Part shown: one piece after another, positions 2,399-27,392 of the stretch
Numbering within the stretch: the first letter of the stretch is position 1
Layout of the letters: the number at the start of each line of letters is the position of its first letter
The notes under the pieces: model-generated
What the model was told of the DNA's origin: nothing
What the model saw: only the letters and a program-made list of their open reading frames with translations
The model's database searches: none
NCBI GenBank assembly: GCA_031552355.1
Contig: JAVBMO010000069.1
Coordinates: 1-43,930, forward strand
Source: Bacteroidales bacterium
GTDB taxonomy: Bacteria > Bacteroidota > Bacteroidia > Bacteroidales > P3
Length of the DNA stretch: 43,930 nt
Direction of reading: 5' to 3'
Position numbers and translations under genes: made by a program

Positions 2399-2532
2399 CA
2401 TTCCTATAACGAGGCTTAGAGACTCCTTCTAACTACCGTTAGATGTTCTTTCTAACGATGCTTAGAGGGAGTTTCTACAATAAGAGGCGATAAAACGTCT
2501 CCGTTGAACTTGCTAAGTTTAATTTATCAAAC

Positions 2533-2629
2533 ATAGGCTTTGCCTGTAAAACGCTGACTAGTTCTAAAGGAAAACAGCCATTTACAAGGGCTAAAATGTA
2601 AAAGGCTATTCCCAAATCAGGAATTTGGG
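2533..2629 (+). repeat. ~100-nt conserved intergenic element, copy A (copy B at 8893-9005)
   Basis: ATAGGCTTTGCCTGTAAAACGCTGA..GTTCTAAAGGAAAACAGCCATTTACAAGGGCTAAAATGTAAAAGGCTATT..AGGAATTTGGG aligns with 8893-9005 at roughly 85% plus one indel. The 3' part can fold as CCCAAAT-CAGGA-ATTTGGG. Confidence 0.75.
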
Positions 2630-2883
2630 TATGTTTAAAACGGAAATACATTTCTGCTTAACAGAGGTAAAAGTGGCTATTATTGAAGAGAGTTAAGAAC
2701 TGAAGGATTGAGGGACTGAAGGATTGAAAAGACGAAAGCATCGCACAGCACGGTAAACTAACTGTCTCGGGCAGAGTTTTAAGTTGTTTTGAATAATGAG
2801 TGATTTCATTGCCGTCGTGCTTTAGCCGACGGTATCAAAAGATGAAATTCTATTTTCGGCTTTAGCCTAAATTGTAAAACAGA

Positions 2884-2948
2884 TTTGGCTAAAGCCGGAT
2901 AGTCTCTAGCTCATTTGAATCCGTTGCTTAAAAGCAAGGGCAATGAGG
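2884..2948. repeat. 65-nt hairpin-module repeat, copy B (copy A at 363-427)
   Basis: TTTGGCTAAAGCCG..CCGTTGCTTAAAAGCAAGGGCAATGA. Neighbouring small hairpins: CCGTCGTGCTTTAGCCGACGG (2811-2831) and GGCTTTAGCC (2858-2867). Confidence 0.7.
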
Positions 2949-3334
2949 GAACCCTGTTCTTCAGGGGGCTTTAAAAGTTTTGAAAACAGGTGGGGAAGTA
3001 GAAAACTAATGAAGAATGAATAATGGGCAAGCGGATTAATTTGAAAGGGAAATGCTTTACACCTTACAAATCTTTTATCCAAATAATAAATATAAAAAAT
3101 AAAGCAGGCAAACAATGTAAACAAAAAATCTAAAGAAGAAAACCTGAGCGTGAAACAGATTTTAAAGAAGTTCAATGGATTAAGACATTTTTTTGTACCG
3201 GCATTAGATGTAGTTACATGGTGCATGGCAAAACTATTGAAATTTCTTTTTAAGCTGTTAAGCCCTGTGGGCTCACAAATGTCTTCTTTAGTAAGGAAAA
3301 TAGAAAAACCAAATAACCCCAAAAACAAAAAACA

Positions 3335-6300
3335 ATGAAACAGAAAAATTACAAATTGCGAAGCAGGAATATCCTGAAAAGCTTAGCGCTTTTTTGCCTT
3401 TGCTTCTTTTTTGCCTTTACGGCAAAATCTCAAACCGATTGTTATTCGGCCATAAGCCTTTCGGGGGCTACGCCGGACATTACAGCAAACCATTCCGGTT
3501 TATCGAGCGTTTATGTCTGGTATACGTTTACTCCGGCAAGCGGGCAAAGCGGTGTTTATACAGCAAGCACCTGTGGAAAAACAACCTACGACACAGAAAT
3601 AATCATCTATGAAGGGACTTCTTGTGGTGATTTCGTAGAAAGAGCCTATTCCGCCGATGCCGGTTGTAACGATGGAAGTCATCAAAGTAAAGCTTCTTTT
3701 TTTGCTGAAGAAGGCAAAACCTATTATTTTAAATGGTGGAACCGTTCAGGGCAGTATAACTATGAATGGGATTTAACAGTCACAGGTGTATCTATAGGTG
3801 GCGATTCCTGTTCAAGAGCCTTGCCATTGGCCGGCCCTTCCGAAGATCTTTGCGCTTATTTTTCAGGAGATGGTCAAACCCAGCAATGGTATAGCTTCAC
3901 CCCCACAGAAAAAGGTCTCTATAAAGTAAGCAATTGTGGAAATAGTATCAGTCCCCCTTTTCTTTTAACTCTGGTTATCTCTGAAGGAACATGCGATTCG
4001 AAAACAATAATTAAAGAAGGAACAACATGTAGTAATGGAAATACAGCTATATTTACAGCCGAAGCAGGTACAACCTATCTTATTGCCTGGTGGGGGTATA
4101 CTGAATTCTTTTATTGGAGTTTAAGCGAAGTGAACTCTACCGGATTGTTTTGCGAAAAAGCGATAGTAATTACAGAGCCTTCTGATAATATTTTCGCCAA
4201 TTGTACACCATCCAATTCTGAACAATGGTATAGTTTTACCCCTTCGGAAAGCGGAACCTACAGGGCCAGTAATTGCGCAAGCAGCAGTAATTCTTCTTCT
4301 TATTTATATATTAATGCCGGAACATGCGATGCACAAACACAAATTGCAGAAGGGCAGAGATGTGACTATTCTTCTGATAAAAAAACAGCTACCTTTGCGG
4401 CCCAGGCAGGAACCACATACTATATTCTTTGGAATTCGAACGATCCTTTTAACTGGAGTTTAAGTAAAGTGGATTCCACAGGATTGTCTTGCCAAAAATC
4501 GATAGTAATTACAGAGCCTTCTGATAATATTACCGCTAATTGTACGTCATTCGGCTCCAGTCAATGGTATAGTTTTACCCCTTCGGAAAGCGGAACCTAC
4601 AGGGCAAGCAATTGCGCAAGCAGCAGTAATTCTTCTTCTTATTTATATATTAATGCCGGAACATGTGGGGCACAAACACAAATTGCAGAAGGGCAGAGCT
4701 GTGACTATTCTTATAATACAGAAACAGCTACCTTTACAGCCCAGGCAGGAACCACATACTATATTCACTGGAATTCGTACAATCCTTTTAACTGGAGTTT
4801 AAGTAAAGTGGATCCCACAGGATTGTATTGCGAAACTCCTATAGAGATTACAGAACTTTCTGACAGTATTCCAGCACCTCACTCCACCAAAGAAACTAAC
4901 TATATTTGGTACCATTATACACCCACAAGCGCGGGATATTATACCATTGTTAATAATACTGACAACTCTTCACTCTATTTCTATACAGGAAATTGTGATC
5001 ATTTATCTGATTTGGGTTCAATTTCGTACTATTCTTCTGATCGTAAATCCACCTTTTACCTTGCGGCGAATCAATCTTTTTATGTGAAAAGCGAAAACTA
5101 CAACTATTATTCAAGAACGGATTCCCAATGGGAATTCCGCAGGGAGAATGATCCTGTCGGCCTGCTTTGCGAAATAGCGATTGATTGTGGTGTGGCTAAT
5201 AATATTGCTGCCAATTTTGCTACTAAAAAAACACAATCGCTTTGGTATAAATTCGCTCCCACCGAAACCGGAGTTTATACCCTAAATGCTAACAGACAAA
5301 ACTATTTTTATGTTTCCGAAGGCAGTTGTACAGATAAGAGGTTTGTTACCAATGGAGATTCATTGGTTTCTTTTACCGGAGAAAGCGGAAAAACTTATTA
5401 TATAGAGTTTTTCCAAGCTAAGCCCCAAGCTCAAAATATTCAATGGAATCTGCAAAAAGAAACAACATCGCAACAGGGATGGGTATGCGAAAACCCTATA
5501 GTGCTTACCAATACCTCGGAAGACGTTTTGGCCAACCATGCAGGATTAAAGCGGACGGCTATCTGGTATAGCTTTACACCTACAGCCACACAAACAGGGA
5601 TCTATAAATTCACTACCTGCGGAAAAACAACAGAAAGCGTTTATTTTGAAGTATATGATGGCAATTGCGCCAGCAAAAACGGTATAGATTATTTTGACTC
5701 GTACCAATGTTCAAGTTCCTCCCGGAAATTTGGAAGTTTTAGGGCAGAAGCCGGAAAAACCTATTATTTCTTAGCCTTTACATACGGAAACATGAACAAC
5801 TACAATTGGTCTTTTACCCAAATGGATACCACCGGCCGCGACTGCGCAGCGCCGATTGTGCTGACAGATGTTCAAAACGATATAGCAGTGCCACATGCCG
5901 AAAAGGAAAGCGCGAATCTTTGGTACGCTTTTACTCCTAAAAGCAGTGGGTATTACCAGGCAAGCAATATTGGAAAAGTTTCGGGCAACTATTATTCTGC
6001 ACGCTCCCTGAATATTTATGCCGGTTCCTGCAATAATAGGATTTCCATAGGAGAATTAAAGCAGTCTTATTCAAACGGCCAATCCGATTTCTTTTATGCC
6101 GAAGCCGGAAAAACCTATTATATTAACTGGTATTTGGATCTTACTTATTATGATTATAATTATACTTATACATGGGATTTGAAAGCTGTTAATCCGGAAG
6201 GTTTAAGCTGCAAAAACCCTATAGTGTTAAGCGGAGTGTCCGAAAATATCCTTGCCGACCATTCAGGCAAGAATACAGAAACCTTATATTACAGCTTTAC

Positions 6301-8665
6301 CCCCACGGAATCGGGAGTTTATACAGCAAGTTCCTGCGGAAAAACAACAGAGGATACTTATCTGGAAATTTCTAAAGGGAGCTGCGGAAATGATATTATT
6401 GGTTCTTCTGATTATAATTGTAACCAACAAAGCCTATATAGCTTTTATGCAGAGGCAGGCACAACCTACCAATTAATCTGGGCGAATCATCGTAATTTAA
6501 ACAGCTACAGTTGGGACTTGTCAAAAGAAGCCAATACTGCAGGGCTCTATTGCCAAAATGCTATCCCATTGTCTGATACGTCAAGCAATATAATGGTAGA
6601 GAAGTCAACTATACGCGATTCATATTGCTGGTATGCTTTTACTCCTAAAAAATCAGCATATTATGGCACTAATATGCCGTATGCATTGATTTATAAAAAT
6701 TGCGGTGATTTGAATCCAATGCCATCTCCCAATGCTTTTTATGGCGAAGCAGGCACCATTTATTATATTCGTTTAAACGCTTCTACCTTCTATACTTATA
6801 CATGGCAACTTTATGAGGCAAGCAAGCCCTCTTCGTTCATAGCTTTCCGTATAGTGGATTATTATGGGTATGATTATTCTTCTTTTGATTTTGATTCATG
6901 GGATCTGATTCATAATTACTCAGCATCCTTATATATTGAATCCACTCCCTCCGGAAGTTCTTATAAAAGCCTGTCGTGGGAGAGTTTAAACCCTGCTGTT
7001 GCCACTGTAAACAATGGCGTGGTTAGCCCTGTTTCAGCCGGATCCACCTATGTAGTGGCGACTATGGTTACCGAGAATGCGGTATTAAAAGATTCCTGCC
7101 TGATATCGGTTTCTTCCGAAAACCTGACAAGCCTCAGCATTTCCAACAAAACGCTTGCCTTAACAGAAGGAAAAACCTCATTGCTTACAGCCACTATTTT
7201 ACCAACAAATGTAGGTGATGATTCCAAAACTGTAACATGGCAAAGTACAAATAACGCTATAGCCACCATAACCAATGGCGTGGTAGTAGCGCTAAAAGAA
7301 GGAACCGCGAAAATAATGGTTACGGCTAATAGTAATAAGAATTTGAAAGACAGTTGTGTGGTAACCGTAACCAAAAGCAGTGTTAATATCCCGGTAACAG
7401 GTGTTGGCGTATCGCCCAAAACCATGTCGATGAACGTAAATGCTGAATATACAATTACCGCGGCAGTGATGCCTTTTAATGCCAGCAACAAAACGGTTAC
7501 ATGGGCAAGCGATAACCAGTCTGTAGCCACTGTGGATGCGGCAGGAAAAGTAAGTGCGAAAAGCAAAGGAACAGCCCGTATTATTGCCACCACACAAGAG
7601 GGGAATTTCAAAGACACTTGCATGCTTACAGTTGGCCAGCCTGCCACAGGCATCAGCTTGAAAAAAGCGACGACTATTCTTATAGGAAATCAGGAACAAT
7701 TGGTAGCTAATCTGTTACCTACCAATGCAGACAATACTTATGTGTATTGGTATTCTAATAATTCTACTGTAGCGGATGTTAATTCTACCGGTTTGATTAC
7801 AGCTACGGGCATAGGGACAGCCCTTATTTATGCAGAAATTAGTGTAAATGGCTCATGGGTTTATGATACCTGCAAAGTAACGGTTGCCAATACAGCCGTT
7901 GCGGTAAGCGGAGTAAGTCTGAATAAAACAAACCTTTCTTTAAAAGCTACCCAGGAAGAACAGCTTACGGCAAGCATTACACCGGAGACTGCCACGAACC
8001 AAAATATAAGGTGGAGCAGCAGCGATACCAATATTGTAAGGGTTAGAAATGGACATTTATATGCAAAAGTCAAAGGAATAGTCACCATTACAGTCACCAC
8101 AGAGGATGGTAACAAAACAGCCTCTTGTGTGGTAACGGTAATACAGCCAGTAACAAATGTTACTTTATCACCTCAAACGCTTAGCTTAGCCGAAGGTGAA
8201 ACAGGATCACTTGTTGCTAATGTCCTTCCTGCCAATGCGGACAATAAAAATATAAGCTGGAGTAGCAGCGATACCAATATTGCAAAAGTAAATTCATCAG
8301 GGAATATAACAGCTATCAAAGAAGGAACGGCAACCATAACCGTAACTACAGCAGATGGTGGCTACACGGCAACATGTGTTGTTACTGTAAGCCCAACCAC
8401 CGGTATAGAAGAAGCGGAGGCTGAAGAAGCCACTTTTGTAGTGTATCCGAACCCGGTTATTAATGGACAATTGACAATTGAAACAGGCCCCCAAACCCCC
8501 AAAGGGGGCATTAAAGACGGCATCCAACTTTTTGACCTTGTGGGTAAATTGGTAGGCTCTTTTGCCATTACCGGCGAAAAAACCGAAATCAACATCGGCC
8601 ATTTGCCGAGTGGAACGTATGTGGTGAAAGTGGGAACAGAAACCGTAAAAGTCATCAAACGATGA
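3335..8665 (+). CDS. Giant secreted/surface repeat protein (1776 aa): signal peptide + 10 Cys-patterned PPC-like modules + ~6 Big_2 Ig-like domains + T9SS type-A C-terminal sorting domain
   Basis: Uninterrupted 5.3-kb ORF with an N-terminal signal (..LALFCLCFFFAFTAKSQ). Ten 97-122-aa modules at nt 3434-6829 share GLxC..PI.L....NI.A.H......WY.FTP..SG.Y..S.CGK....L.IY.G.C....FYAEAGKTYYI.W....Y.W.L. Big_2-like repeats at ~6920-8395 (..V.W.S.N..IATV..G.V.A...GTA.I.VT....KD.C.VTV). The C-terminal ..FVVYPNPV..LTIE....LFDLVGKLV....INIGHLPSGTYVVKVGTETVKVIKR (8396-8662) fits the T9SS CTD pattern. Confidence 0.9.
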   Translation: MKQKNYKLRSRNILKSLALFCLCFFFAFTAKSQTDCYSAISLSGATPDITANHSGLSSVYVWYTFTPASGQSGVYTASTCGKTTYDTEIIIYEGTSCGDFVERAYSADAGCNDGSHQSKASFFAEEGKTYYFKWWNRSGQYNYEWDLTVTGVSIGGDSCSRALPLAGPSEDLCAYFSGDGQTQQWYSFTPTEKGLYKVSNCGNSISPPFLLTLVISEGTCDSKTIIKEGTTCSNGNTAIFTAEAGTTYLIAWWGYTEFFYWSLSEVNSTGLFCEKAIVITEPSDNIFANCTPSNSEQWYSFTPSESGTYRASNCASSSNSSSYLYINAGTCDAQTQIAEGQRCDYSSDKKTATFAAQAGTTYYILWNSNDPFNWSLSKVDSTGLSCQKSIVITEPSDNITANCTSFGSSQWYSFTPSESGTYRASNCASSSNSSSYLYINAGTCGAQTQIAEGQSCDYSYNTETATFTAQAGTTYYIHWNSYNPFNWSLSKVDPTGLYCETPIEITELSDSIPAPHSTKETNYIWYHYTPTSAGYYTIVNNTDNSSLYFYTGNCDHLSDLGSISYYSSDRKSTFYLAANQSFYVKSENYNYYSRTDSQWEFRRENDPVGLLCEIAIDCGVANNIAANFATKKTQSLWYKFAPTETGVYTLNANRQNYFYVSEGSCTDKRFVTNGDSLVSFTGESGKTYYIEFFQAKPQAQNIQWNLQKETTSQQGWVCENPIVLTNTSEDVLANHAGLKRTAIWYSFTPTATQTGIYKFTTCGKTTESVYFEVYDGNCASKNGIDYFDSYQCSSSSRKFGSFRAEAGKTYYFLAFTYGNMNNYNWSFTQMDTTGRDCAAPIVLTDVQNDIAVPHAEKESANLWYAFTPKSSGYYQASNIGKVSGNYYSARSLNIYAGSCNNRISIGELKQSYSNGQSDFFYAEAGKTYYINWYLDLTYYDYNYTYTWDLKAVNPEGLSCKNPIVLSGVSENILADHSGKNTETLYYSFTPTESGVYTASSCGKTTEDTYLEISKGSCGNDIIGSSDYNCNQQSLYSFYAEAGTTYQLIWANHRNLNSYSWDLSKEANTAGLYCQNAIPLSDTSSNIMVEKSTIRDSYCWYAFTPKKSAYYGTNMPYALIYKNCGDLNPMPSPNAFYGEAGTIYYIRLNASTFYTYTWQLYEASKPSSFIAFRIVDYYGYDYSSFDFDSWDLIHNYSASLYIESTPSGSSYKSLSWESLNPAVATVNNGVVSPVSAGSTYVVATMVTENAVLKDSCLISVSSENLTSLSISNKTLALTEGKTSLLTATILPTNVGDDSKTVTWQSTNNAIATITNGVVVALKEGTAKIMVTANSNKNLKDSCVVTVTKSSVNIPVTGVGVSPKTMSMNVNAEYTITAAVMPFNASNKTVTWASDNQSVATVDAAGKVSAKSKGTARIIATTQEGNFKDTCMLTVGQPATGISLKKATTILIGNQEQLVANLLPTNADNTYVYWYSNNSTVADVNSTGLITATGIGTALIYAEISVNGSWVYDTCKVTVANTAVAVSGVSLNKTNLSLKATQEEQLTASITPETATNQNIRWSSSDTNIVRVRNGHLYAKVKGIVTITVTTEDGNKTASCVVTVIQPVTNVTLSPQTLSLAEGETGSLVANVLPANADNKNISWSSSDTNIAKVNSSGNITAIKEGTATITVTTADGGYTATCVVTVSPTTGIEEAEAEEATFVVYPNPVINGQLTIETGPQTPKGGIKDGIQLFDLVGKLVGSFAITGEKTEINIGHLPSGTYVVKVGTETVKVIKR
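4139..4816 (+). repeat. In-frame tandem duplication, 2 x 339 bp (modules 3 and 4 of giant gene 1)
   Basis: 4139-4477 versus 4478-4816. My hand alignment gives ~34 mismatches in 339 nt (~90% identity), far more similar than any other module pair. Confidence 0.9.
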
Positions 8666-8840
8666 AAAATGAAATAATACCTGCCTTTCAAGCCCCCTTT
8701 GGGGGTTGGGGGGCTTGTTTGCCGAGTGGAACGTATGTAGTGAAGGTAGGAACAGAAACTGCCAAAGTTACTAAACGATGAAAAATGAAGTGACAAACCA
8801 ATCCTGCCTTTCAAGCCCCTTTGGGGGTTGGGGAGCTGGT
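8602..8840 (+). repeat. Tandem duplication (~116 + ~123 nt) of the gene-1 3' end plus its G/C hairpin, leaving a pseudo-CTD remnant
   Basis: Unit 1 (8602-8717) runs TTTGCCGAGTGGAACGTATGTGGTGAAAGTGGGAACAGAAACCGTAAAAGTCATCAAACGATGAAAAATGAA..CCTGCCTTTCAAGCCCCCTTTGGGGGTTGGGGGGCT. Unit 2 (8718-~8840) repeats it with substitutions. It would encode LPSGTYVVKVGTETAKVTKR-stop but has no upstream ORF. Confidence 0.85.
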
Positions 8841-8852
8841 TTTGGACCCTCT

Positions 8853-8890
8853 ATTGAGCTTAGGTTGCCTACCTAAGCTCAATTTATTGT
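8853..8890 (+). terminator. Rho-independent-type terminator downstream of giant gene 1
   Basis: Perfect 13-bp stem ATTGAGCTTAGGT (8853-8865) / ACCTAAGCTCAAT (8871-8883), loop TGCCT, followed by TTATTG. Confidence 0.6.
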
Positions 8891-8892
8891 AA

Positions 8893-9005
8893 ATAGGCTT
8901 TGCCTAAAAAACCGCTGAACAGAATCTGCAAATTTGGTTCTAAAGAAAAGCAGCCATTTACAAGGGCCAAAATGTAAAGGGCTATTTTAAAAATAGGAAT
9001 TTGGG
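8893..9005 (+). repeat. ~100-nt conserved intergenic element, copy B (copy A at 2533-2629)
   Basis: ATAGGCTTTGCCTAAAAAACCGCTGA..GGTTCTAAAGAAAAGCAGCCATTTACAAGGGCCAAAATGTAAAGGGCTATT..AGGAATTTGGG. Same orientation as copy A. It lies between the terminator at 8853 and the lipoprotein gene at 9085. Confidence 0.75.
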
Positions 9006-9084
9006 AATTGGCGAGAGCTTTACTTGGTGTGAAACCCGCATTATCCAAGATAATTAATATAAAACTCAAACAAATAAAAGACAA

Positions 9085-9945
9085 ATGAACACAAAACAAT
9101 TTTTTAAGAATGCAGCTTTGCTGCTTATGATGGCAACGCCTGTATTATTCACAGCTTGCAGCAAAGACAACGAAAACAACGGTGACAATGGCAACCCAAA
9201 CACCGAAATACCGGGCGGGAAACGGGTAGCCAAAATAATATTCGACAATAGGGAATGGATTTTCGATTACGACAAGCAAGGCAGAATAGTAAGCTGGAAA
9301 ATTGATTACTTAGAAGAAGAAAATGATAAATACGATGAGTTTATAAAAATAGAATATCAGGCAGATGGCTCTATAAAATATTCGGAAGGCGACTACAGTA
9401 TTATAGAAAAATTGAATGCAGCAGGCTATGTAGAATCCTCTACAATGATATCTGAAAGTGGACAGGAATGCAAATGGATCTATTTCTACAATGAGGATAA
9501 CACTCTTAAACAAGCAAAGGGCAAACAGGATATGGTATTTGTGGATGAAGAAGAGAATTTCTCCGATGTGGAACTTGAATTCACCTACAACTATTCTTGG
9601 ACAGATGGAAATATTACCGCTTTAAATTCCCAAACGGTATGGACGACTGGTATTAGAGGTTACAATGATATGGAAATGGCGGCCATAAGCTATTCCGATA
9701 AACTTAATAACAGCAATCTTGATTTGAGCTTATTTCTGAATCCGGAATTACTACGTAACTACGGCTATGGCTCTATCTTCGGCTTTACTGGAAAGAAATG
9801 CAAAAATCTGCCAAGCAAAACCGTGAGAACTTACAATGGAAATGAATTCATTTATGAATTTTCCTACCTTTTCGATAGCGATGGCTATTTAATCCAAGCG
9901 GTTACGTCAAGAGGCTATACCTATACCGTAGAGTACGTAAAATAA
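9085..9945 (+). CDS. Lipoprotein with YD-repeat-like motifs (DUF4595-like)
   Basis: Signal plus lipobox MNTKQFFKNAALLLMMATPVLFTAC. Contains YD/RHS-like short repeats (..FDYDKQGRIVSWKIDY.., ..YLFDSDGYLIQAV..). Only 27 nt upstream of giant gene 2. Confidence 0.7.
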   Translation: MNTKQFFKNAALLLMMATPVLFTACSKDNENNGDNGNPNTEIPGGKRVAKIIFDNREWIFDYDKQGRIVSWKIDYLEEENDKYDEFIKIEYQADGSIKYSEGDYSIIEKLNAAGYVESSTMISESGQECKWIYFYNEDNTLKQAKGKQDMVFVDEEENFSDVELEFTYNYSWTDGNITALNSQTVWTTGIRGYNDMEMAAISYSDKLNNSNLDLSLFLNPELLRNYGYGSIFGFTGKKCKNLPSKTVRTYNGNEFIYEFSYLFDSDGYLIQAVTSRGYTYTVEYVK

Positions 9946-9972
9946 TGAATAGAAATCTAAAATAAAAGACAA

Positions 9973-12900
9973 ATGAACACAAAACAATTTTTTAAGAATA
10001 CAGCTTTGCTGCTACTGCTGGCCATACCTTTGCTATGGCAAAAAGAAGTAAAAGCACAAGGAGCAAGCTGCGAAACTGCAAGAATATTAATGGATACATC
10101 CAGTAATATTGCAGCTAAGAATGGTGATAACTGGTATGTTTTCACCCCCACACAGGCACAAAAAGGAACTTATAGGGTTCAAACAAATGATAATATGCCT
10201 ATTTATGTATGTAACACATGCAATGAAGAGTCTTTTACCTATCTGAATTCCGGTTCTTTGTTTTATGCCGAAGCGGAAAAAACTTATTATTTTCGGTACT
10301 ATAATATTTCCGGAACAAACCAAATATGGCAATTGAGCAGAGTGCCTAATGTTGAAGGCTTACTTTGCCAAACACCCATAGAAATCCCGGCATTATCCAA
10401 TGCTATTGCTGCCAATTTTGCCACAAAACAAACCTCAAGGTTTTGGTATCGTTTTACTCCTTCTACTGCAGGCTATTACCGCGCAAGCAATTGTGGGAAA
10501 ACAGGGACTCGTTCTTCAATTGACATACAAAGTGGAAATTGCGACAGTTTGGTTTATGTAGGTACCGGTAATATGTGTGAGTATCATTGGAAAAGCGATG
10601 TTTTATTTTATGGAGAAGCAGGCAAACCGTATTTGATTTATATAAACCAGACTCAGAACCCTTATGAGTACCCTGCCGACTACACTTGGGAACTGCGCAA
10701 GGAAGATAGCCCTGAAGGTTTATCTTGCCAAACTCCTATTGAAATCGCCTCTACATCGAATAACATTCCTGCTAACCATGCGACCAAACAAGTGAAAGAA
10801 TTATGGTACAAATTTACGCCAACCCAATCAGGGGTTTACACAGCAAGCAGCTGCGGAAAATCCGACTATACTTCTATGAGTGTGTATGACTCTTGCGGAC
10901 AATACACGACAGAAGAGGCTATTTGTGCTACCTCATTCAATGCCCAGGCAGGTAAAACATACTACATCGTCAATAGGGGGAGTGGGGATTATACATGGAG
11001 CTTGCACTTGGGAAACAATCCCGAAGGCTTGATTTGCCAAAGCGCTATTGTCCTTACCGATACCTCAAACAATATTTTGGCAAATCATACTGATAAACAA
11101 AGCCCCGTACTATGGTATCGTTTTGCACCTACAGCTGCCCAAGAGGGTGAATACAGCCTCACCAATTGTGGAAAAACCTCAGATACGACCCAGGTCTTTA
11201 TATATGAAGGAATTTCGTGTGATGATAAAACGTCTAAAGGTTCCTATACCAATACTTACTGTGATATTGAGTATTACACAGAAACTTCTTTTTATGCAGA
11301 ACCCGGAAAAACCTATTATATCCAATGGCTTAACCAAAATGGGGTGAACAATTACCATTGGTCTTTTACCAAAAAAGATACCCGTGGAAAATACTGCATC
11401 ACTCCCGTTGAACTAAAAGATACCATGAGTAATATTCCTATTAACCGTTGGTACACCTTTAGTCCAAAACAAAGTGGCTATTATGTGGCAAGTGATTATG
11501 GAAAAAACGCATATAATACACATCTTACGAATGTCCATATTTCCACAGGCACTTGTAATGAACTTGTTTCTGTAGGGAATATTATGCATAAAGATGAGCT
11601 TGGCATTGCATCTGTATTTTATGCAGAAGTCGGAAAAACCTATACAATTAACTGGATAAGCTATTTTATAGATTCGCATTGGGATTTGTATCAGATAAGT
11701 AATACCGAAGGTTTAACATGCAACAGCTCTATTGCAATTAGTGGCGTATCGGACAATATTGCAGCTGATCATGCGGGAAAACAAAGTCCTATCTTATGGT
11801 ATCGTTTCACACCCACAGAATCGGGAGAATATATTGTCAGTTCATGCAACAAAACCACACATAAAACCTATTTGACTGTATTTAGCGGTACATGTACAGA
11901 TCTGTCTGAAATAAGCTCGTCTTCTAATTATTGCGAAAACCAAAGCCGTATTGCATTCACTGCTCAAGCCAATCAAACGTATTACTTTAGATGGATAAAC
12001 GATGACGGATCTTATAGCTACAATTGGTCATTGTCCAAAAACAATGATACGGAAGGTAGGTTATGCGAAACACCTATTGTATTGACCGATACTTCAAGCA
12101 ATATAAAATATCTTAGTAATAATCCTACTTTATGGTACTCATTTACACCTACTGCCACGCAGGAAGGAGTTTATAAAATTTTAGAATCCGGAGGAGTTTA
12201 TGTAGAACTATACACAGGCTCTTGTGGAAATTTGAATAATGTATTCAACAATAAAGAACTTGTGTCGCTGGGAACAAATATTTTTTATGCAGAAGCCGGA
12301 AAAACATATTATTTCAATTGCGAAAAACAAATGGAAGGAGGATTATGGGGCCTGAGTAAGGTGGATAATCCAGAAGCTTTAACTTGTCAAACAGCCAAAG
12401 AAGTTACAAACGTAACAGATGACATTAGCCTTATTAACGTAGGATATAATTGGTTCGTTTTTACCCCAAATACCAATCAAGAAGGTATTTATAAAATAAA
12501 ATGGAGTAGACGAGAACTTGATTATAGAGTTTACACAGGCTCTTGCAATAATTTAGAGAAAATTATAGATCGTACAGAAGAACCCTTTTATGTTGAAGCA
12601 GGAAAAACGTATTATGTAAAAGGCTTTGGTGGAAAAATGGACACATGGAGTTTAGTAAAAGAAACCCAAACTTTAGAGGGTAAAGTTTGCCAAACAGCAA
12701 TAACTATCACCTATTTTGGTGAATCCTATATTATAAGTTCCTATTCAAAAGAGGAATCCTGGTATAGCTTTACACCCACTAAAACAGCTTATTACACTGT
12801 TGCATCACCCTGTGGTAGTGGTGTTTATGATGGCGAATGCAGCACTTTGAATGAAATAGTAAATATCTCACGGGAACCTTTCAATTCTATATCAGACATA

Positions 12901-15228
12901 GCGTCGAAATCAACCTTCTATGGGCTAAGTGGAAAAACTTATTACATTCATCTTAATAATCTCTCTGAAGGTTTTGATGCTATAAGCGGAATTTTTGGTA
13001 GCTATCCATGGCTACTTTTAGAAGAAAGCAATCCCGAATTTGCTACTACGCTTTCTTTGGAAAAGCATAACCTCAGCTTGACTTTGAATGAAGAACAGAC
13101 TTTGTGGTACTCCGCAAACGGATTGTATGCAAATCCTACATGGGTAAGTCGCAATACAGCCATTGCCACCGTTTCGGAAGGGAAAGTAATTGCTAAAGCA
13201 TCAGGACAAACCTATATTGTATTCAGTGTAAACGCAGGTGGAACCATTTTAAAAGATAGCTGCCTGGTAACGGTAACAGCAATAAATGTAAATACCAATT
13301 GCCAAGCTGCCATTACTATTACCGATACGTTAAATTGTGCGGTTTCTCAAACAGAACAGGAAGTGTGGTATAAGTTTACGCCTACAGCAGAACAGGAAGG
13401 GGTTTACTCAATAGGGGGGGATATACTAAGTATGACCGGTCCTTGTGCATTGGTATTTGAAGTGTTCAGCGGAAATTGCACAAAAATGAGTCAAATTACA
13501 AGTACTATATGTCTGTATGAGCCTGGAGACCTAGGCCAAGCTCCTTTTTATGCGGAATCAGGAAAAACGTATTATTTAAAATGCGAACAAGCAGGGATTG
13601 TTAGTGAGGCTAATAAAATAAATTATACATGGCAACTCGCCAAGGTAAATAATCCCCAATTTGCTACGGCTATAACTATGGAAGATAGCCGTAGTTTAAA
13701 TGTGAATGGCGAATGTATTGTGAGCTGTTCTGTCAGTGACGGCGTTTATTATAATCCTGTCTGGCTAAGCCGCAATCCTGACATTGCCACCGTTTCCGAA
13801 ACAGGAAAAGTAACTGCCAAAGCGCCGGGACAAACTTATATTGTATTCAGTGTAAACGCAGGGGAAACTATCTTAAAGGATAGCTGCTTGGTAACGGTAA
13901 CCGAAGCTTTTGTCAAAGTTTCTGGCATTACTTTATCTGCAAAAAGCTTGGCCATGAAGGTGGATAGCGTAAGCATGCTTACCGCTACGGTTTTACCTGC
14001 CAATGCCACCAATAAAAATATAAGTTGGGCGAGTACCAACACCGGTATTGCTACGGTAAACAATGGTGTGGTAACGGCAAAAGCTATTGGAACGGTCTAT
14101 GTTATCGCCACCACCCAAGACGGAAACTTTAAAGACACTTGTGCGCTAACGGTAACATCCAATGCTATTGCTGTTTCCGGTATTACGTTATCTGCAAAAA
14201 ACTTAGCCCTAAAGGTGGATAGCGTAAGCACCCTTACTGCTACAATTACACCAAGTAATGCCACCAATAAAAATATAAGTTGGGCGAGTACCAACACCGG
14301 TATCGCTACGGTAAACAATGGTGTGGTAACGGCAAAAGCTATTGGAACGGTCTATGTTATCGCCACCACCCAAGACGGAAACTTTAAAGACACTTGTGCG
14401 TTAACGGTAACATCCAATACTATTGCTGTTTCCAGCATTACTTTATCTGCACAAAGTTTGGCGTTGAAGGTGGATAGCGTAAGCACCCTTACCGCTACGG
14501 TTTTACCCGCCAATGCCACCAATAAAAATATAAGTTGGGCGAGTGCCAACACCGGCATTGCTACGGTAAACAATGGTGCTGTAAAAGCTAAAGCAACAGG
14601 TACTGCTTATATCATTGCCACTGCAGAAGATGGTGGGTATAAAGATACTTGTGTGGTAACAGTTACAGAATCACAAAAAGAAATTGTTATTATTCCTGAA
14701 GTAACTTCTATTGTTATCAGTTGGGAAAAAGAACAGGGAGCACAAAACTATGTGCTTATTGTTTATAGCGACTTGGCAAGAACCCAGGAAGTAGCCCGCT
14801 TCGAGTTCGATGCTTCTGGCAATTTGCTTACCAAAGCACCGTTTACCCATACCGTAACCGGACTTACTTCTGAAACACAGTACTATTATTCGCTTACTGC
14901 CTACAATGCAGAAGAGGAAGAAATCAGAACGTTTGAGGGCGGTTTTACCACCCTTAAAACCACAGGCATAGAAGAAGCAGATGCAGAGGAAGCAACTTTT
15001 GTGGTGTATCCGAACCCTACCTACAGTGGAAAGTTGACAATTGAAAGTGGAGAATTAACAGCTCAACAACTCAACAATTCAACAATTCAACTTTTTGACC
15101 TTGTGGGTAAATTGGTAGGCACCTTTGCCATTACTGGCGAAAAAACTGAAATCAACATCGGCCATTTGCCAAGTGGAACGTATGTGGTGAAAGTGGGAAC
15201 AGAAACCGTAAAAGTCATCAAGAAATAA
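9973..15228 (+). CDS. Giant secreted/surface repeat protein (1751 aa): signal peptide + 10 Cys-patterned PPC-like modules (the last interleaved with Big_2) + 5 Big_2 + Fn3-like domain + T9SS CTD
   Basis: Uninterrupted 5.3-kb ORF with signal MNTKQFFKNTALLLLLAIPLLWQKEVKAQ. Modules span nt ~10060-13035 and 13297-13656, with the same consensus as gene 1. Big_2 units at ~13036-13296 and 13657-14682. Fn3-like ..VISWEKEQGAQNYVLIVY..TVTGLTSETQYYYSLTAYN.. at 14683-14958. The CTD at 14959-15225 is nearly identical to the gene-1 CTD. Confidence 0.9.
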   Translation: MNTKQFFKNTALLLLLAIPLLWQKEVKAQGASCETARILMDTSSNIAAKNGDNWYVFTPTQAQKGTYRVQTNDNMPIYVCNTCNEESFTYLNSGSLFYAEAEKTYYFRYYNISGTNQIWQLSRVPNVEGLLCQTPIEIPALSNAIAANFATKQTSRFWYRFTPSTAGYYRASNCGKTGTRSSIDIQSGNCDSLVYVGTGNMCEYHWKSDVLFYGEAGKPYLIYINQTQNPYEYPADYTWELRKEDSPEGLSCQTPIEIASTSNNIPANHATKQVKELWYKFTPTQSGVYTASSCGKSDYTSMSVYDSCGQYTTEEAICATSFNAQAGKTYYIVNRGSGDYTWSLHLGNNPEGLICQSAIVLTDTSNNILANHTDKQSPVLWYRFAPTAAQEGEYSLTNCGKTSDTTQVFIYEGISCDDKTSKGSYTNTYCDIEYYTETSFYAEPGKTYYIQWLNQNGVNNYHWSFTKKDTRGKYCITPVELKDTMSNIPINRWYTFSPKQSGYYVASDYGKNAYNTHLTNVHISTGTCNELVSVGNIMHKDELGIASVFYAEVGKTYTINWISYFIDSHWDLYQISNTEGLTCNSSIAISGVSDNIAADHAGKQSPILWYRFTPTESGEYIVSSCNKTTHKTYLTVFSGTCTDLSEISSSSNYCENQSRIAFTAQANQTYYFRWINDDGSYSYNWSLSKNNDTEGRLCETPIVLTDTSSNIKYLSNNPTLWYSFTPTATQEGVYKILESGGVYVELYTGSCGNLNNVFNNKELVSLGTNIFYAEAGKTYYFNCEKQMEGGLWGLSKVDNPEALTCQTAKEVTNVTDDISLINVGYNWFVFTPNTNQEGIYKIKWSRRELDYRVYTGSCNNLEKIIDRTEEPFYVEAGKTYYVKGFGGKMDTWSLVKETQTLEGKVCQTAITITYFGESYIISSYSKEESWYSFTPTKTAYYTVASPCGSGVYDGECSTLNEIVNISREPFNSISDIASKSTFYGLSGKTYYIHLNNLSEGFDAISGIFGSYPWLLLEESNPEFATTLSLEKHNLSLTLNEEQTLWYSANGLYANPTWVSRNTAIATVSEGKVIAKASGQTYIVFSVNAGGTILKDSCLVTVTAINVNTNCQAAITITDTLNCAVSQTEQEVWYKFTPTAEQEGVYSIGGDILSMTGPCALVFEVFSGNCTKMSQITSTICLYEPGDLGQAPFYAESGKTYYLKCEQAGIVSEANKINYTWQLAKVNNPQFATAITMEDSRSLNVNGECIVSCSVSDGVYYNPVWLSRNPDIATVSETGKVTAKAPGQTYIVFSVNAGETILKDSCLVTVTEAFVKVSGITLSAKSLAMKVDSVSMLTATVLPANATNKNISWASTNTGIATVNNGVVTAKAIGTVYVIATTQDGNFKDTCALTVTSNAIAVSGITLSAKNLALKVDSVSTLTATITPSNATNKNISWASTNTGIATVNNGVVTAKAIGTVYVIATTQDGNFKDTCALTVTSNTIAVSSITLSAQSLALKVDSVSTLTATVLPANATNKNISWASANTGIATVNNGAVKAKATGTAYIIATAEDGGYKDTCVVTVTESQKEIVIIPEVTSIVISWEKEQGAQNYVLIVYSDLARTQEVARFEFDASGNLLTKAPFTHTVTGLTSETQYYYSLTAYNAEEEEIRTFEGGFTTLKTTGIEEADAEEATFVVYPNPTYSGKLTIESGELTAQQLNNSTIQLFDLVGKLVGTFAITGEKTEINIGHLPSGTYVVKVGTETVKVIKK
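13918..14682 (+). repeat. In-frame tandem repeat, 3 x 255 bp (three Big_2 domains; the first two nearly identical)
   Basis: Units at 13918-14172, 14173-14427 and 14428-14682 encode VSGITLSAK.LA.KVDSVS.LTAT..P.NATNKNISWASTNTGIATVNNGVVTAKAIGTVYVIATTQDGNFKDTCALTVTSN.IA. The 255-nt spacing of the antisense shadow ORFs at 14097..14318 and 14352..14573 reflects the same period. Confidence 0.9.
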
Positions 15229-15365: not shown

Positions 15366-15446
15366 TAAATTTTAACAATTTGTATTTTATATTGAAAAAA
15401 ACTCTAAATTTGCCACATGTTAGTATCCCAAACCAAACATAATTTT
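15366..15446 (+). promoter_or_regulatory. Bacteroidetes-type promoter (-33 TTTG, -7 TAnnTTTG) plus conserved leader, copy 2
   Basis: TTTG at 15379-15382, a 22-nt spacer, then TAAATTTG at 15405-15412, then GCCACATGTTAGTATCCCAAACCAAACATAATTTT. Homologous to 1195-1272. Confidence 0.55.
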
Positions 15447-16154
15447 ATATCTATTATTTCCTGTGTCCCATGGTTTAAAAAGAAGTCTTATTCTCATAAC
15501 TTTTTTTTATCTGCAAAAACCGATGGCGTAACACAACATTTGCATTGGTTTCTTTCTAAAACCAATATACTTATAGTCCTTACTTTCTTGGCAGGATGTG
15601 GCAACGCTGAAAAACAAATCAATATTTCCACAAAAGATATAGCCGAAGGCGATTTGGTTTTCAGAAAAGGGAATGGAACAAAGTCGCGAGTGGTTTTAGG
15701 CACAGACCCCAACGGAATGTATAGTCATGTTGGCATTGTGGTTAAAGTAGATTCCTCTTTAAAAATAATACACATTACGCCCGACGAACGGGAAAATGGA
15801 GAGACCGAGGATAGGATAAAAATAGAAACATTCGAACAATTTTTCGCTCCCGATAAATCTGAAAAAGGGATTGTTTTGCACTGGACAGATTCATTAACTA
15901 CTGCTCATAATGCTGCCACTCAGGCCATTGAATATTACAACAAACAGGTGCTGTTCGACCATGATTATAATTTGCAAGATTCCACACAAATGTATTGTAC
16001 CGAATTGGTTTGGCGATGTTATCAAAAAGCAGGAAAAGATATAAGCGAGGGGAGGCGCAGCGAAGTAAAAAAGTTCCCTATGTTCTCCGGAACCTATATT
16101 TTCCCCTCAGATATATATGTAAACAAAAATTTTAAACCACGCTTAGAGCTTTAA
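15417..16154 (+). CDS. YiiX/YaeF-like permuted NlpC/P60 (peptidase C92 / DUF830-type) hydrolase, probable lipoprotein
   Basis: Shows ..GDLVFRKGNG...YSHVGIVV... then ...YCTELVWRCYQKAG..., i.e. His before Cys as in permuted papain-like YiiX enzymes. The ATG at 15417 is the longest start. The in-frame TTG at 15540 would give a canonical lipoprotein signal (M)HWFLSKTNILIVLTFLAGC, so the true start may be 15540. Confidence 0.65.
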   Translation: MLVSQTKHNFISIISCVPWFKKKSYSHNFFLSAKTDGVTQHLHWFLSKTNILIVLTFLAGCGNAEKQINISTKDIAEGDLVFRKGNGTKSRVVLGTDPNGMYSHVGIVVKVDSSLKIIHITPDERENGETEDRIKIETFEQFFAPDKSEKGIVLHWTDSLTTAHNAATQAIEYYNKQVLFDHDYNLQDSTQMYCTELVWRCYQKAGKDISEGRRSEVKKFPMFSGTYIFPSDIYVNKNFKPRLEL

Positions 16155-16187
16155 ATACATTTATTAACAACCAAAAAAAGAAAGAAC

Positions 16188-16601
16188 ATGAAAAGAAAAA
16201 ACACAACCTTAGTAGTATTAGTAAGCATGATATTAACTTTTATGTTTGTAGCTTGCAGTGGCAAAAGTCCTGCCGATATTGAAATGTCTATGTGGAAACA
16301 AGTACAAAAAGGCAATTATGAAGATGCCATGGAAATTTTAGTAAAAAATTCCATGCGTTCAGAAGACGATACCCCTGAAAAGCAGAGAGAGGTCGTTACA
16401 ATGTTTGCCGAAAAAGTAAAAGCCTCGTGTGAAGAAAAGGGGGGGATAAAAGATATTAAGCTGCTCGAGGAGTCTATTAGCGAAGATGGGAATACAGCTC
16501 TTGTAACCCTTGAAATTACCTACAAAAATGGAAGCACCAAAGAGGAGCGTAGTAAATACAAAAAAGTTGATGGAGATTGGAAAATAGATATGTCGAAATA
16601 A
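16188..16601 (+). CDS. Small lipoprotein, DUF4878-like (NTF2-like fold family)
   Basis: Lipobox ..MILTFMFVAC. Also ..MWKQVQKGNYEDAMEIL.. and a C-terminal ..YKKVDGDWKIDMSK, typical of DUF4878 lipoproteins (recognised by eye). Confidence 0.6.
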   Translation: MKRKNTTLVVLVSMILTFMFVACSGKSPADIEMSMWKQVQKGNYEDAMEILVKNSMRSEDDTPEKQREVVTMFAEKVKASCEEKGGIKDIKLLEESISEDGNTALVTLEITYKNGSTKEERSKYKKVDGDWKIDMSK

Positions 16602-16668
16602 ATAGTCGGTTTGCCAAGGTTTCCGATGTTAAAATTCAAATTATTATCACAATTATAATTAAATAGAG

Positions 16669-17520
16669 ATGAACCATAAAATAAAACAGACATTATTACT
16701 GATTTTTTGTTTGTTCTTTTTGTTTTCGTGCAAGAATAACCAAAATACACAAATAAATGATGCCTATCTGGATGAAATAGATTTCTTTAAGATTGAGGGC
16801 GAAATGATTTATTACCCTTTCGTCGCTTTGCAAAATGTGAAAACCGATTGGGGAAAGTTAGGTTTGAGGGGAAAAGTGAAAAGCATGAAAGTAAATGAGA
16901 GTACATATTATTTTCATGAAAATGGAACCATTGACAGGATAGAATTTCACAATCAAGACTACTCTTCGGTAGACTATTTTATTTACAATAAAAAAGGACA
17001 ATTAAGCCTTGTTAAAAGCAGTAGATTGGTCTCAATAAACGGTAAAAAAGAAAACCATATAGATAGTACCGTTTATAAATACAAAGAGGATGGTATGTTA
17101 GAAAATGCTGTTTATTCAAAAAATGGAATCATTCATTCAATAAACTCTTCGGAATTGTCAATAGCCTCATCAAAATATGATGCAACAGGACAATTAATTT
17201 TATTTGATACAACAGGTGCTAACTATCACTATAAATATAGTGAACAGGGCAGGTGTATTGAGAAAAAATACGACAGTCCCGGAATGGATGGTGTTGAGCA
17301 TATTACATGCAGCTACATGTATAACGAAAATCGAGATATTATAAAAGAAGTGAGGCATACGATATATGAATTGGATTCATATATCAACGAACCTGATGAA
17401 ACCTATTCCAAAGAAAGCACCTACTCTTATATTTATGATGAACACAAAAACTGGGTAGAACGCACTGAATCCGGAAATAAAATAAGTACAAAAAGAACTT
17501 TTGAATATTATCCAAATTAA
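16669..17520 (+). CDS. Lipoprotein with YD-repeat-like motifs
   Basis: Lipobox ..LFFLFSC. Repeated Y-x-Y/YD-like beta-hairpin motifs (..YKYKEDGMLENAVYSKNG.., ..KYDATGQLILFD.., ..YKYSEQGRCIEKKYD..). Confidence 0.6.
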   Translation: MNHKIKQTLLLIFCLFFLFSCKNNQNTQINDAYLDEIDFFKIEGEMIYYPFVALQNVKTDWGKLGLRGKVKSMKVNESTYYFHENGTIDRIEFHNQDYSSVDYFIYNKKGQLSLVKSSRLVSINGKKENHIDSTVYKYKEDGMLENAVYSKNGIIHSINSSELSIASSKYDATGQLILFDTTGANYHYKYSEQGRCIEKKYDSPGMDGVEHITCSYMYNENRDIIKEVRHTIYELDSYINEPDETYSKESTYSYIYDEHKNWVERTESGNKISTKRTFEYYPN

Positions 17521-17529
17521 AAACAAAAT

Positions 17530-19008
17530 ATGATGAAAATCAAGAATATTTTTAAAATATCTACCTTAGCTTTAATAGTTGTATTTAGCACAAGCGTATC
17601 AGCACAAAGCTTTTTTGATAAAATGAACAAAGCTTTGGATAATGCAAATAAATCCATTGATAAAGCCCTTGATGCAACAGACAAAGCTTTAGGTACGGAC
17701 AAAAAGTCGCAAGAGCCAAGCAAAACCCCAAAAACCGACTCTAAACCGGCTAATACTCCGTCAACAAATCAATCTCAATCACCAAATACACAAAGTAATA
17801 CCAATAAAACGACTCCTGCTACTTCACAAACACCTCAAGTCATTTCACCTCACATAACTTCCAAAACAAAAATCATTGAGGTGTATAATGCAAAAGATGT
17901 AGTAGTTACAGACTTTTCGAACAATGTATGTTTTGTTCGTGATAATAAAACGAAGAATTGGGCAATAGTTGATACATTGGGTAATTTTATAACGGATTAT
18001 AAATTCAATTTTTCCATTTATGAAGATGTTCCCTATTTTAGCAACAATGTATGTGTGATTTCCGGCAGCTTAAACGGATATAAAAACGGAGTAGTATTGA
18101 TAAATACAAAAGGTGAAGTAATAAAACATTTGCCCGATATCAGTAAACTTTCCAACTTTACAGATGGTGTCGCCACTGGTTTTTTGAGTGTGCTTGATAA
18201 AAAGAATTCTACAACCTATAAAAATGTTTACATAACAAAGATTGTTTATCTCAATACGAAGGGAGAAACTATCTTTCCTGATTTATCGGTAGTAGTGCCG
18301 GATAGAAGTACCCTTAAACCTTCTCTTTCGTACAGAAACGGCTTGGCTATTTATTATGATTATCAAAAAAACAAATGGGGCTACATTAATAACAGTGGAA
18401 AAATTATAATTCCTGCAATCTACAATGATGTGCATAGCTTTAGTGAGGGGCTTGCAGCTGTACAAAACAATGAAGGGTTATGGGGGTATATTGACGTTAC
18501 AGGAAAGACCAAAATTAATTTCAGTTATTCAAATGAGCCTACCAATTTCTCAGAAGGTATTGCACTTATAAAGAAGCGGTCAGAAGACCATGCACCTTAT
18601 TGTATGATTGATACAACAGGAAAAATAATACTTCAAAACATTGATAACGCAACACCATTCCTCAATGGGAAAGCCTATATAGATTTGATATTGCCAAATG
18701 AACAATATATAGCTCATGTATTAGTAGATAGGAACTTTAAAATAATAAAAAGACTTGATGATAAATTTAATAAAAAGTTTGGTGCTTACGGGCTTGCCTT
18801 TTCTAATGAATTTATATATTTTAATCCCTATTATGGAATTCATGTAATTACAGAATTTGGAGATATTCTTATGGATGGGCTTGATTCCTATTTTTATTGT
18901 GGTAGAGCTCGGTGTAGATATACTGAAGATCGATCTAAAAAGCGCACTTATGGTTTTATCAACACAAAAGGAGAGTTGGTATTTTACTTTAAAGAACCTG
19001 AATTTTAA
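17530..19008 (+). CDS. Secreted WG-repeat (KWG-type) protein with an N-terminal S/T/P/Q/N-rich linker
   Basis: Signal ..LALIVVFSTSVSAQ. Low-complexity linker ..PKTDSKPANTPSTNQSQSPNTQSNTNKTTPATSQTPQ... Repeated ..NKWGYINNSGKIIIPAIYNDV.SFSEGLA.V....LWGYIDVTGK.. motifs, characteristic of WG-containing repeats. Confidence 0.7.
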   Translation: MMKIKNIFKISTLALIVVFSTSVSAQSFFDKMNKALDNANKSIDKALDATDKALGTDKKSQEPSKTPKTDSKPANTPSTNQSQSPNTQSNTNKTTPATSQTPQVISPHITSKTKIIEVYNAKDVVVTDFSNNVCFVRDNKTKNWAIVDTLGNFITDYKFNFSIYEDVPYFSNNVCVISGSLNGYKNGVVLINTKGEVIKHLPDISKLSNFTDGVATGFLSVLDKKNSTTYKNVYITKIVYLNTKGETIFPDLSVVVPDRSTLKPSLSYRNGLAIYYDYQKNKWGYINNSGKIIIPAIYNDVHSFSEGLAAVQNNEGLWGYIDVTGKTKINFSYSNEPTNFSEGIALIKKRSEDHAPYCMIDTTGKIILQNIDNATPFLNGKAYIDLILPNEQYIAHVLVDRNFKIIKRLDDKFNKKFGAYGLAFSNEFIYFNPYYGIHVITEFGDILMDGLDSYFYCGRARCRYTEDRSKKRTYGFINTKGELVFYFKEPEF

Positions 19009-19068
19009 TCGTATTTAAGATAAAAATCAATCAATTTAATAATTAACAAACAAAAAAATCAAATTACA

Positions 19069-24841: not shown

Positions 24842-25027
24842 GAAAAACTTTTTTGCCCTGACAAAGGGCGTAAAACAATTATTTAATTCTCTTTAAATTG
24901 AAGGGTGTAAAACACACTGTCTTCTTTTCTATCCCACCTTTCCTTCAAACTCAAAGTTCTTTCTTCAAGAACTTCCCCACAAAAGACAATGCTTTTTAAA
25001 GAGAATTTAGAAAAGGGTATAAATAGA

Positions 25028-25063
25028 ACAAAACACTATCAAGTATTTTTGATAGTGTTTTGC
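25028..25063 (-). terminator. Hairpin downstream of rplQ, a probable terminator of the ribosomal supercluster
   Basis: Perfect 13-bp stem AAAACACTATCAA (25030-25042) / TTGATAGTGTTTT (25049-25061), 60 nt past the rplQ stop. The U-tract is partly inside the stem, so strength and orientation are uncertain. Confidence 0.5.
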
Positions 25064-25122
25064 AAAATATGACTTAATTTTGACAATCTACAGTATTCAA
25101 AAAACGAACTGTCAAAATCAAA

Positions 25123-25668: not shown

Positions 25669-25673
25669 TTCCT

Positions 25674-27337: not shown

Positions 27338-27392
27338 AAACTTAACTCTATTTTATTTTATACAAATTCTTTAATTACAAATTTTGATAGGC

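Follow-up and report, generated by a model that had tools for sequence, protein, structure and literature searches.

The DNA considered here, which we refer to as the window, is a stretch of 43,930 nucleotides (nt) from an uncultured Bacteroidales bacterium of gut type (contig JAVBMO010000069.1 of GenBank assembly GCA_031552355.1), and our subject is a pair of giant genes, A and B, that it carries on its plus strand. A model reading the letters of the window had proposed two giant open reading frames (ORFs) on the same strand with one small lipoprotein gene between them, and both the coordinates and the uninterrupted frames are confirmed: gene A encodes 1776 amino acids (aa) and gene B encodes 1751 aa. 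[quoted passage not shown]

3335-8665 (+): gene A; signal peptide, ten PPC-like modules, six Big_2, type A T9SS CTD
3335-3430 (+): signal peptide, aa 1-32 of A; SPase I is predicted to cut at AKS↓Q, which places Gln at +1
3431-6829 (+): module array A1-A10, aa 33-1165; modules start at 3431, 3800, 4142, 4481, 4820, 5159, 5477, 5834, 6200 and 6542, and the last ends at 6829
4142-4819 (+): recent duplicate pair A3/A4, within array A
6893-8401 (+): six Big_2 of A, aa 1187-1689
8441-8659 (+): type A T9SS CTD of A, aa 1703-1775; PF18962 and TIGR04183 above cut-off
9973-15228 (+): gene B; signal peptide, nine modules, Big_2, module 10, four Big_2, Fn3-like domain, type A T9SS CTD
10060-13032 (+): module array B1-B9, aa 30-1020; modules start at 10060, 10357, 10717, 11026, 11386, 11710, 12055, 12376 and 12679, and the last ends at 13032
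13042-13287 (+): Big_2 unit 1 of B, inserted between modules B9 and B10
13294-13656 (+): module B10, aa 1108-1228; 6 Cys
13666-14676 (+): Big_2 units 2-5 of B, ending in three 255-nt tandem repeats with identities of 79-92 %
14704-14931 (+): Fn3-like domain of B, aa 1578-1647; below the Pfam cut-off
15004-15225 (+): type A T9SS CTD of B; PF18962 and TIGR04183 above cut-off

Judged by their sequence features, the products of genes A and B are T9SS type A cargo. The CTD lies at the extreme C-terminus of both proteins, with scores of 40.5 bits for PF18962 (cut-off 27) and 37.9 bits for TIGR04183 (cut-off 23) in A, and 49.8 and 39.8 bits against the same cut-offs in B. The signal peptides, as read from the sequence, have a hydrophobic h-region and sites AKS↓Q (A) and VKA↓Q (B), which fit the Bacteroidetes Q-rule of Gln at +1 of the SPase I cleavage site (PMC5837995). 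Big_2 (PF02368) is above its gathering threshold in both proteins, with 251.5 bits over six units in A and 164.9 bits over five in B. The layout proposed earlier (signal peptide, ten modules each, Big_2, and CTD) is found in both, with the correction that the ten modules of B are not contiguous, a Big_2 unit standing between the ninth and the tenth. A match to the Fn3-like domain claimed for B is likewise present, but at 19.2 bits it falls under the PF00041 cut-off of 25. By Pfam scan neither A nor B has a peptidase domain, so their modules do not occupy the position C-terminal to a secreted peptidase that is classical for PPC domains. The Bacteroidetes motif for O-glycosylation, D[ST][AILVMT], is not enriched.

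Motif scanning and hidden Markov models (HMMs) place the ten modules, of 96-123 aa each, in the N-terminal ~1150 aa of each protein. An HMM built from the modules of A alone recovers 10/10 modules of B, and vice versa, with i-Evalues of 1e-8 to 1e-31 (Z = 1e6), and the residues that never vary across the 20 copies are two Cys, a Pro, a Tyr, a Phe, and a Trp. The median pairwise identity among modules is 32 %, and the sole exception is the A3/A4 pair at 83 % aa identity, in agreement with the suggestion that the arrays are old and diverged and that a single duplication is recent. Collinear orthology between the modules of A and those of B is not seen, their best partners being scattered along the arrays. 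The A-x-H-x-x-K element to which attention had been drawn exists, but in only about half of the copies. Every other ORF of the window lacks the module. The ratio of non-synonymous to synonymous substitution rates (dN/dS) comes to 0.61 for the A3/A4 duplicate, whose changes concentrate in predicted loops, and to 0.21-0.27 for the Big_2 repeats; the numbers behind these values are small.

The fold of the module is that of the PPC and collagen-binding-type beta-sandwich, as its strand pattern had led the original prediction to propose. AlphaFold2 models of a 4-Cys copy (A9; predicted local distance difference test, pLDDT, 90.7) and a 2-Cys copy (A8; pLDDT 88.7) are all-beta with nine to ten strands. 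When both models were compared with the PDB by Foldseek, the best matches were 5sv5, the PPC domain of Bacillus anthracis collagenase, and the ColG/ColH collagen-binding domains (CBDs; 1nqd/1nqj and 3jqw), all with probability 1.00 and template modelling (TM) scores of 0.65-0.76 for the 4-Cys and the 2-Cys model. The next matches were the claudin-binding C-terminal domain of Clostridium perfringens enterotoxin (C-CPE) and domain 3 (D3) of botulinum HA70, and carbohydrate-binding modules (CBMs) of families CBM6/35/36 and a porphyran CBM ranked lower, with TM scores of 0.38-0.47.

Among sequence models, no Pfam or NCBIfam model, including those of the newer Pfam release from which the precomputed tags derive, exceeds its threshold on any of the 20 copies. 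When single modules were scanned, Pfam gave weak matches to PPC in 4/20 (best E 3.8e-4) and to PF23759 (GBD_T9SS_assoc), which Pfam describes as ‘galactose binding domain-like’, in 1/20 (1.1e-4). The PF23759 gathering threshold of 27 bits was not reached, with zero matches on the whole proteins A and B, and for PPC (PF04151) the best score was 15.5 bits, on protein B, below the threshold of 25.9 bits. In profile-profile comparison by hhalign, the 20 window copies align with 22 homologous modules, of which 13 are PF23759-positive and 5 PPC-positive, at a probability of 99.7 % and E 2.8e-25 over columns 1-114 versus 1-107, with all four Cys in register. On one homologue, P0072 (homologous proteins carry P numbers here), the match of the 20-copy profile and that of PF23759 overlap (440-547 and 459-536). 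Because of this full-length profile-profile homology, the shared Cys register, and the PPC fold, we place the module in the PF23759/PF04151 superfamily, as a divergent subfamily and not a new domain. The earlier statement that no characterised family accounts for the module thus survives in the narrow sense that no model captures the 20 copies above threshold, but homology to PF23759/PPC modules extends along the entire module. The subfamily comprising A, B, P0003, P0005, P0006, P0070, and P0073 escapes current Pfam and NCBIfam models. Two precomputed tags that the window proteins carry, PF26182 and PF26918, were also considered as names for the module and were ruled out, being faint Ig-like matches (Ig_NUP210_5th and Ig_Eae).

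Arrays of such modules are common. An exhaustive HMM search with the 20-copy profile against 1.84 billion cluster representatives yielded 9,589 proteins at E <= 1e-3, 3,052 at <= 1e-10, and 318 at <= 1e-30, and most of the top homologues contain 5-21 matched stretches in tandem. The claim that tandem arrays of this kind could not be attributed to any known family is not supported, as proteins with 5-21 copies are abundant among these 9,589 clusters. The profile matches P0072, P0066, and P0004 at E 1e-95 to 1e-127, and the Pfam matches to PF23759 and PPC on these three proteins fall on the segments that the profile hits. P0072 (MDB4334875.1) has 8 copies and a CTD, with PF23759 at 7e-36 and PPC at 3e-11; P0066 (Tenuifilum thalassicum, WP_173073327.1) has 13 copies, Fn3, and a CTD, with PF23759 at 4e-33; and P0004 (Saccharicrinis aurantiacus) has 15 copies and a CTD, with PF23759 at 1e-23. 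Tenuifilum and Saccharicrinis are thus cultured carriers of arrays that end in a T9SS CTD, and their annotation is generic only. The original prediction would have yielded to a family of known function with many similarly organised homologues; what exists is a curated family with many homologues, but the family is functionally uncharacterised and the homologues are generically named. The classical PPC context is seen in distant relatives that carry peptidases, P0047 (M4) and P0054 (trypsin-like), with modules C-terminal to or alongside the peptidase.

The closest relatives of the window proteins are P0003, P0070, and P0073, in which the module has no Pfam annotation either. P0003, the closest homologue, comes from a Joint Genome Institute (JGI) metagenome and consists of 11 modules, 2 Big_2, and a CTD, at ~30 % identity. 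For protein A, no close relative was found in the genome or JGI metagenome collections, and no strain variants were found there for comparison. Following P0073, in the metagenome-assembled genome (MAG) GCA_031553535.1, is a 1634-aa CTD protein (L082 13947-18851) with a faint PPC tag and no match to the module profile. A word-indexed search with a profile of the 20 aligned modules had come back empty, and the exhaustive HMM search showed this to be an artefact of sensitivity.

The cysteines of the module follow two patterns. In profile numbering, Cys4 and Cys63 are present in 20/20 copies, and Cys46 and a Cys in the 64-83 loop are found together in 10 copies. In a set of 1,291 homologous modules, the odds ratio for C46 and C75 occurring together is 11.9, a figure that is supportive only, as the sequences are related. 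From these patterns we infer two predicted disulfides, C46-C75 and C4-C63, the latter of which would staple the N-terminal strand. Modules of the subtype that has C4, C63, and a C-terminal Trp (W107) are almost confined to proteins that end in a T9SS CTD, and relatives without a CTD have C46/C75 and lack C63.

The nearest known counterparts are the PF23759 arrays of T9SS cargo (P0066, P0004, and P0072), which resemble A and B in module length, in the four Cys, in setting the modules head to tail with only very short linkers between them, and in their CTD of type A, and share the register G-x-x-C … W[YF]x[FY]T … C … G-x-C … C … G-x-TYYI-x-W … [YF]-x-W-x-L. The window copies differ in that they are sub-threshold, half lack the second predicted disulfide, and most lack the acidic DT/NDD motifs, and the window proteins add a Big_2 stalk and a partial N-I-x-A-N-H-x-x-K element in the beta2-beta3 region. 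With PPC (PF04151) and the CBDs of clostridial collagenases (ColG s3a/s3b and ColH s3; 1nqd, 5iku, 3jqw, and 5sv5), the modules share the beta-sandwich fold and the WYxF and aGxTYYI strand motifs. Those domains occur in tandem in ColG and have a ligand-binding role. In contrast to them, the window proteins have no peptidase, carry ten copies rather than one to three, would be delivered by T9SS, and are 11-18 % identical in sequence; moreover, their modules are predicted to be stapled by disulfides rather than held by a Ca2+-dependent N-terminal linker. Among systems of other descent, the Porphyromonas gingivalis HagA/gingipain proteins are T9SS type A cargo and present a tandem array of beta-sandwich adhesin domains at the surface, as we propose for A and B. 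The HagA domains belong to another family (PF07675), measure ~175 aa, and are proteolytically processed; neither A nor B matches this cleaved adhesin domain (Pfam hmmscan, E <= 1). In the Big_2-stalk adhesins (intimin/invasin and Tannerella BspA), an Ig-like Big_2 stalk stands between the anchor and the distal binding region. A and B differ from these in that their distal region is a 10-module PPC-like array, and their anchoring would be C-terminal, via T9SS and anionic lipopolysaccharide (A-LPS).

On one hand, the route by which these proteins would reach the cell surface can be sketched from their domains. After Sec export and a cut by SPase I before Gln, the protein would fold in the periplasm, each module of ~110 aa forming a PPC-type beta-sandwich with a Cys4-Cys63 disulfide and about half of them also with Cys46-Cys75. 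The CTD would then be recognised and the protein translocated by T9SS, upon which the PorU sortase would remove the CTD and join the new C-terminus covalently to A-LPS; secretion that depends on the CTD, cleavage by PorU, and attachment to A-LPS are established T9SS biology (PMC10202324, PMC9143113, and PMC4804311). The expected product is a long filament, and because it would be anchored to A-LPS at its C-terminus, Big_2 (and the Fn3-like domain in B) would form the stalk on the cell side, with the ten PPC-like modules as the outermost part, where the array may bind a polymeric ligand, protein or glycan, multivalently. Since ligand binding is common to every characterised relative of the fold (collagen for the collagenase CBD/PPC, claudin for C-CPE, and sialoglycan for HA70 D3), we consider that A and B are most likely surface-anchored multivalent adhesins or capture proteins, a reading to which we give somewhat better than even confidence. 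A precedent is offered by the PPC segment of Grimontia collagenase, which binds collagen, and by the PPC segments of secreted proteases, which bind insoluble substrates (PMC6168687).

On the other hand, several results weigh against this interpretation. Sequence-profile searches of the PDB gave nothing significant, and identity to the solved PPC/CBD structures is 11-18 %. No ligand, binding site, or Ca2+ site was identified for the module, and the acidic ‘DT’ and ‘NDD’ motifs that are conserved in PF23759-positive relatives have been lost in most window copies. A search of the literature turned up no publication on PF23759 or on arrays of PPC domains in T9SS cargo. Of the T9SS machinery genes (PorK/L/M/N, Sov, and PorV/U), none lies in the 44-kb window, and the neighbourhoods of homologues are not conserved (the P0003, P0070, and P0073 loci differ), so that context yields no functional clue.

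While the observation is real, it is largely ordinary, being neither a new fold, a new mechanism, nor a new system. Its value for annotation is that a missed subfamily of a very abundant secreted module is now linked to PF23759/PPC, which extends the family and its clan. Tandem PPC-like arrays on T9SS cargo are widespread, in thousands of clusters that include the cultured Tenuifilum and Saccharicrinis, and such arrays probably make up a major class of surface adhesins in Bacteroidota. Through the cultured homologues, the function of the arrays could be tested. A further useful outcome is a set of repeat scars at the ends of the genes, which hint at recombination between the paralogues. The features concerned, with the lipoprotein gene beside which some of them lie, are the following.

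2513-2632 (+): duplicated non-coding block, copy 1, upstream of gene A
8718-8835 (+): non-coding CTD remnant, a tandem duplicate of 8602-8717 (last 72 nt of the CTD and a GC-rich hairpin)
8873-9008 (+): duplicated non-coding block, copy 2, ~120 nt, upstream of the lipoprotein gene; 80-86 % identical to copy 1
9085-9945 (+): lipoprotein gene between A and B, 286 aa; lipobox LFTAC↓SKDNE

A and B share 96 % identity over the final 137 nt of the CTD coding sequence, while the modules are ~32 % identical at the aa level. The CTD remnant at 8718-8789 has 88 % identity to the 3′ end of gene A, including the stop codon, and is followed by a second hairpin. At the other end, the ribosome-binding site (RBS) and first ~20 codons (MNTKQFFKN-ALLL) are 87 % identical between the lipoprotein gene and gene B (9072-9148 versus 9960-10036), which suggests that the start and signal-peptide region of one gene was copied onto the other. 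Within gene B, Big_2 units 1 and 2 (13118-13277 and 13739-13901) are 76-87 % identical in nt, although the modules that precede them, B9 and B10, are only 31 % identical, a combination that points either to intragenic gene conversion or to duplication of a unit followed by replacement of the module. It is conceivable, though very doubtful, that the duplicated 5′ blocks together with the homogenised or remnant 3′ blocks serve as a substrate for shuffling diverged modules between the paralogues, as cassette-type variation in the antigenicity or ligand specificity of an LPS-anchored filament. Inverted repeats of the type found at invertible promoters were limited to short, imperfect ones. The leader of gene A (2399-3334, ~940 nt) is unusually long, has no convincing ORF, and contains a 19-nt near-perfect hairpin at 2857-2897; a 140-aa TTG ORF on its minus strand has no Pfam match. 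Neither the duplicated block nor this leader gave an Rfam match, an unusual fold, or a Bacteroidetes -33/-7 promoter motif above chance.

Other explanations for A and B bear on what the array does, and one is that the modules bind glycans in the manner of CBMs and tether polysaccharide of plant or host origin to the cell, as in the T9SS-linked polysaccharide use of uncultured rumen and gut Bacteroidales. The PF23759 label ‘galactose binding domain-like’, the presence of CBM35, CBM6, CBM36, and a porphyran CBM among the Foldseek matches, the fold match to a sialoglycan binder (HA70 D3), and the gut and rumen MAGs that are the nearest relatives by EF-G are all in keeping with it. However, the CBM matches (TM 0.38-0.47) are clearly weaker than those to PPC/CBD (0.65-0.76), and there is no CAZyme domain in A, B, or the flanking genes, for which reasons we regard glycan capture specifically as unlikely. 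The array could instead have no specific ligand and be a long, protease-resistant, disulfide-stapled fibril or an S-layer-like coat. The conserved positions are core aromatics and Cys only, no surface motif is common to all copies, and copy number varies widely among homologues (5-21), all of which a structural spacer would allow. It is harder to reconcile with a purely structural role that the characterised relatives of the fold are all binding modules, that a stalk is already supplied by the Big_2 repeats, and that ten copies are kept at only ~32 % identity, more than a spacer seems to need; we find this explanation rather improbable.

The repeat scars raise the possibility that A and B are variable surface antigens driven by recombination, in which conserved 5′ and 3′ blocks flank hyper-diverse arrays and the paralogues swap segments, an idea compatible with the other readings. 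It would account for the near-identical CTD ends beside strongly diverged modules, for the additional remnant of CTD 3′ end and terminator at 8718-8835, for the duplications of the upstream block and of the RBS and signal-peptide block, and for the homogenised Big_2 units 1 and 2 of B. Yet the repeats concern just two genes, neither an invertible promoter nor a recombinase lies nearby, no strain variants were found in the genome and metagenome collections, and one old segmental duplication with gene conversion could explain the repeats, so that antigenic variation too seems a rather unlikely account. That the module is a categorically new Cys-patterned domain could be argued from the failure of every Pfam and NCBIfam model to reach its cut-off on the 20 copies and from P0003, P0070, and P0073, which are equally unannotated; the profile-profile homology to PF23759/PPC-positive modules, the identical Cys register, and the PPC fold refute this, and we hold it to be highly improbable. 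Even less can be said for pseudogenes or unexpressed relics: no canonical Bacteroidetes promoter motif lies directly upstream, but two uninterrupted 5.3-kb frames in DNA of 40 % GC, core residues kept in 20/20 copies, and dN/dS < 1 make this exceedingly improbable.

The genes around A and B add little to the picture of the arrays themselves. The 286-aa lipoprotein has no homologue in a word-indexed search of 5.8 billion proteins, and its precomputed PF15283 tag was not reproduced by Pfam scan, which gave a weak DUF3836 match only. Directly upstream of gene A is a gene for an HU-DNA_bdg and DUF4469 protein (1691-2398, +), and such a gene likewise stands upstream of P0003 (L001 6306-7070); the two proteins are 27 % identical and the loci share nothing else, which leaves a recurrent association or coincidence. 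Downstream of B, from 15417 to 20016 (+), are small secreted protein and lipoprotein genes, among them a C92/CHAP-like amidase, DUF4878, an RHS-repeat-like lipoprotein, WG_beta_rep, and a 315-aa protein that has no Pfam match and appears beta-helix-like by eye. These are followed at 20266-21492 (+) by a gene for a 408-aa T9SS CTD protein with four repeats of ~70 aa (Y[IV]EYF-D-DPGYG … DGFHT--VRA-N--G-WSQ), on which no Pfam family reaches its cut-off. As the third CTD protein of the window, it supports a T9SS-bearing organism. A ribosomal-protein and EF-G cluster occupies ~25000-43930 on the minus strand. Its EF-G is <= 80 % identical to that of any of 185,579 species representatives, the best being uncultured Bacteroidales MAGs from goat reticulum and Ca. 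Onthomorpha from chicken gut, and this low identity indicates that the source of the window is a poorly sampled Bacteroidales lineage.

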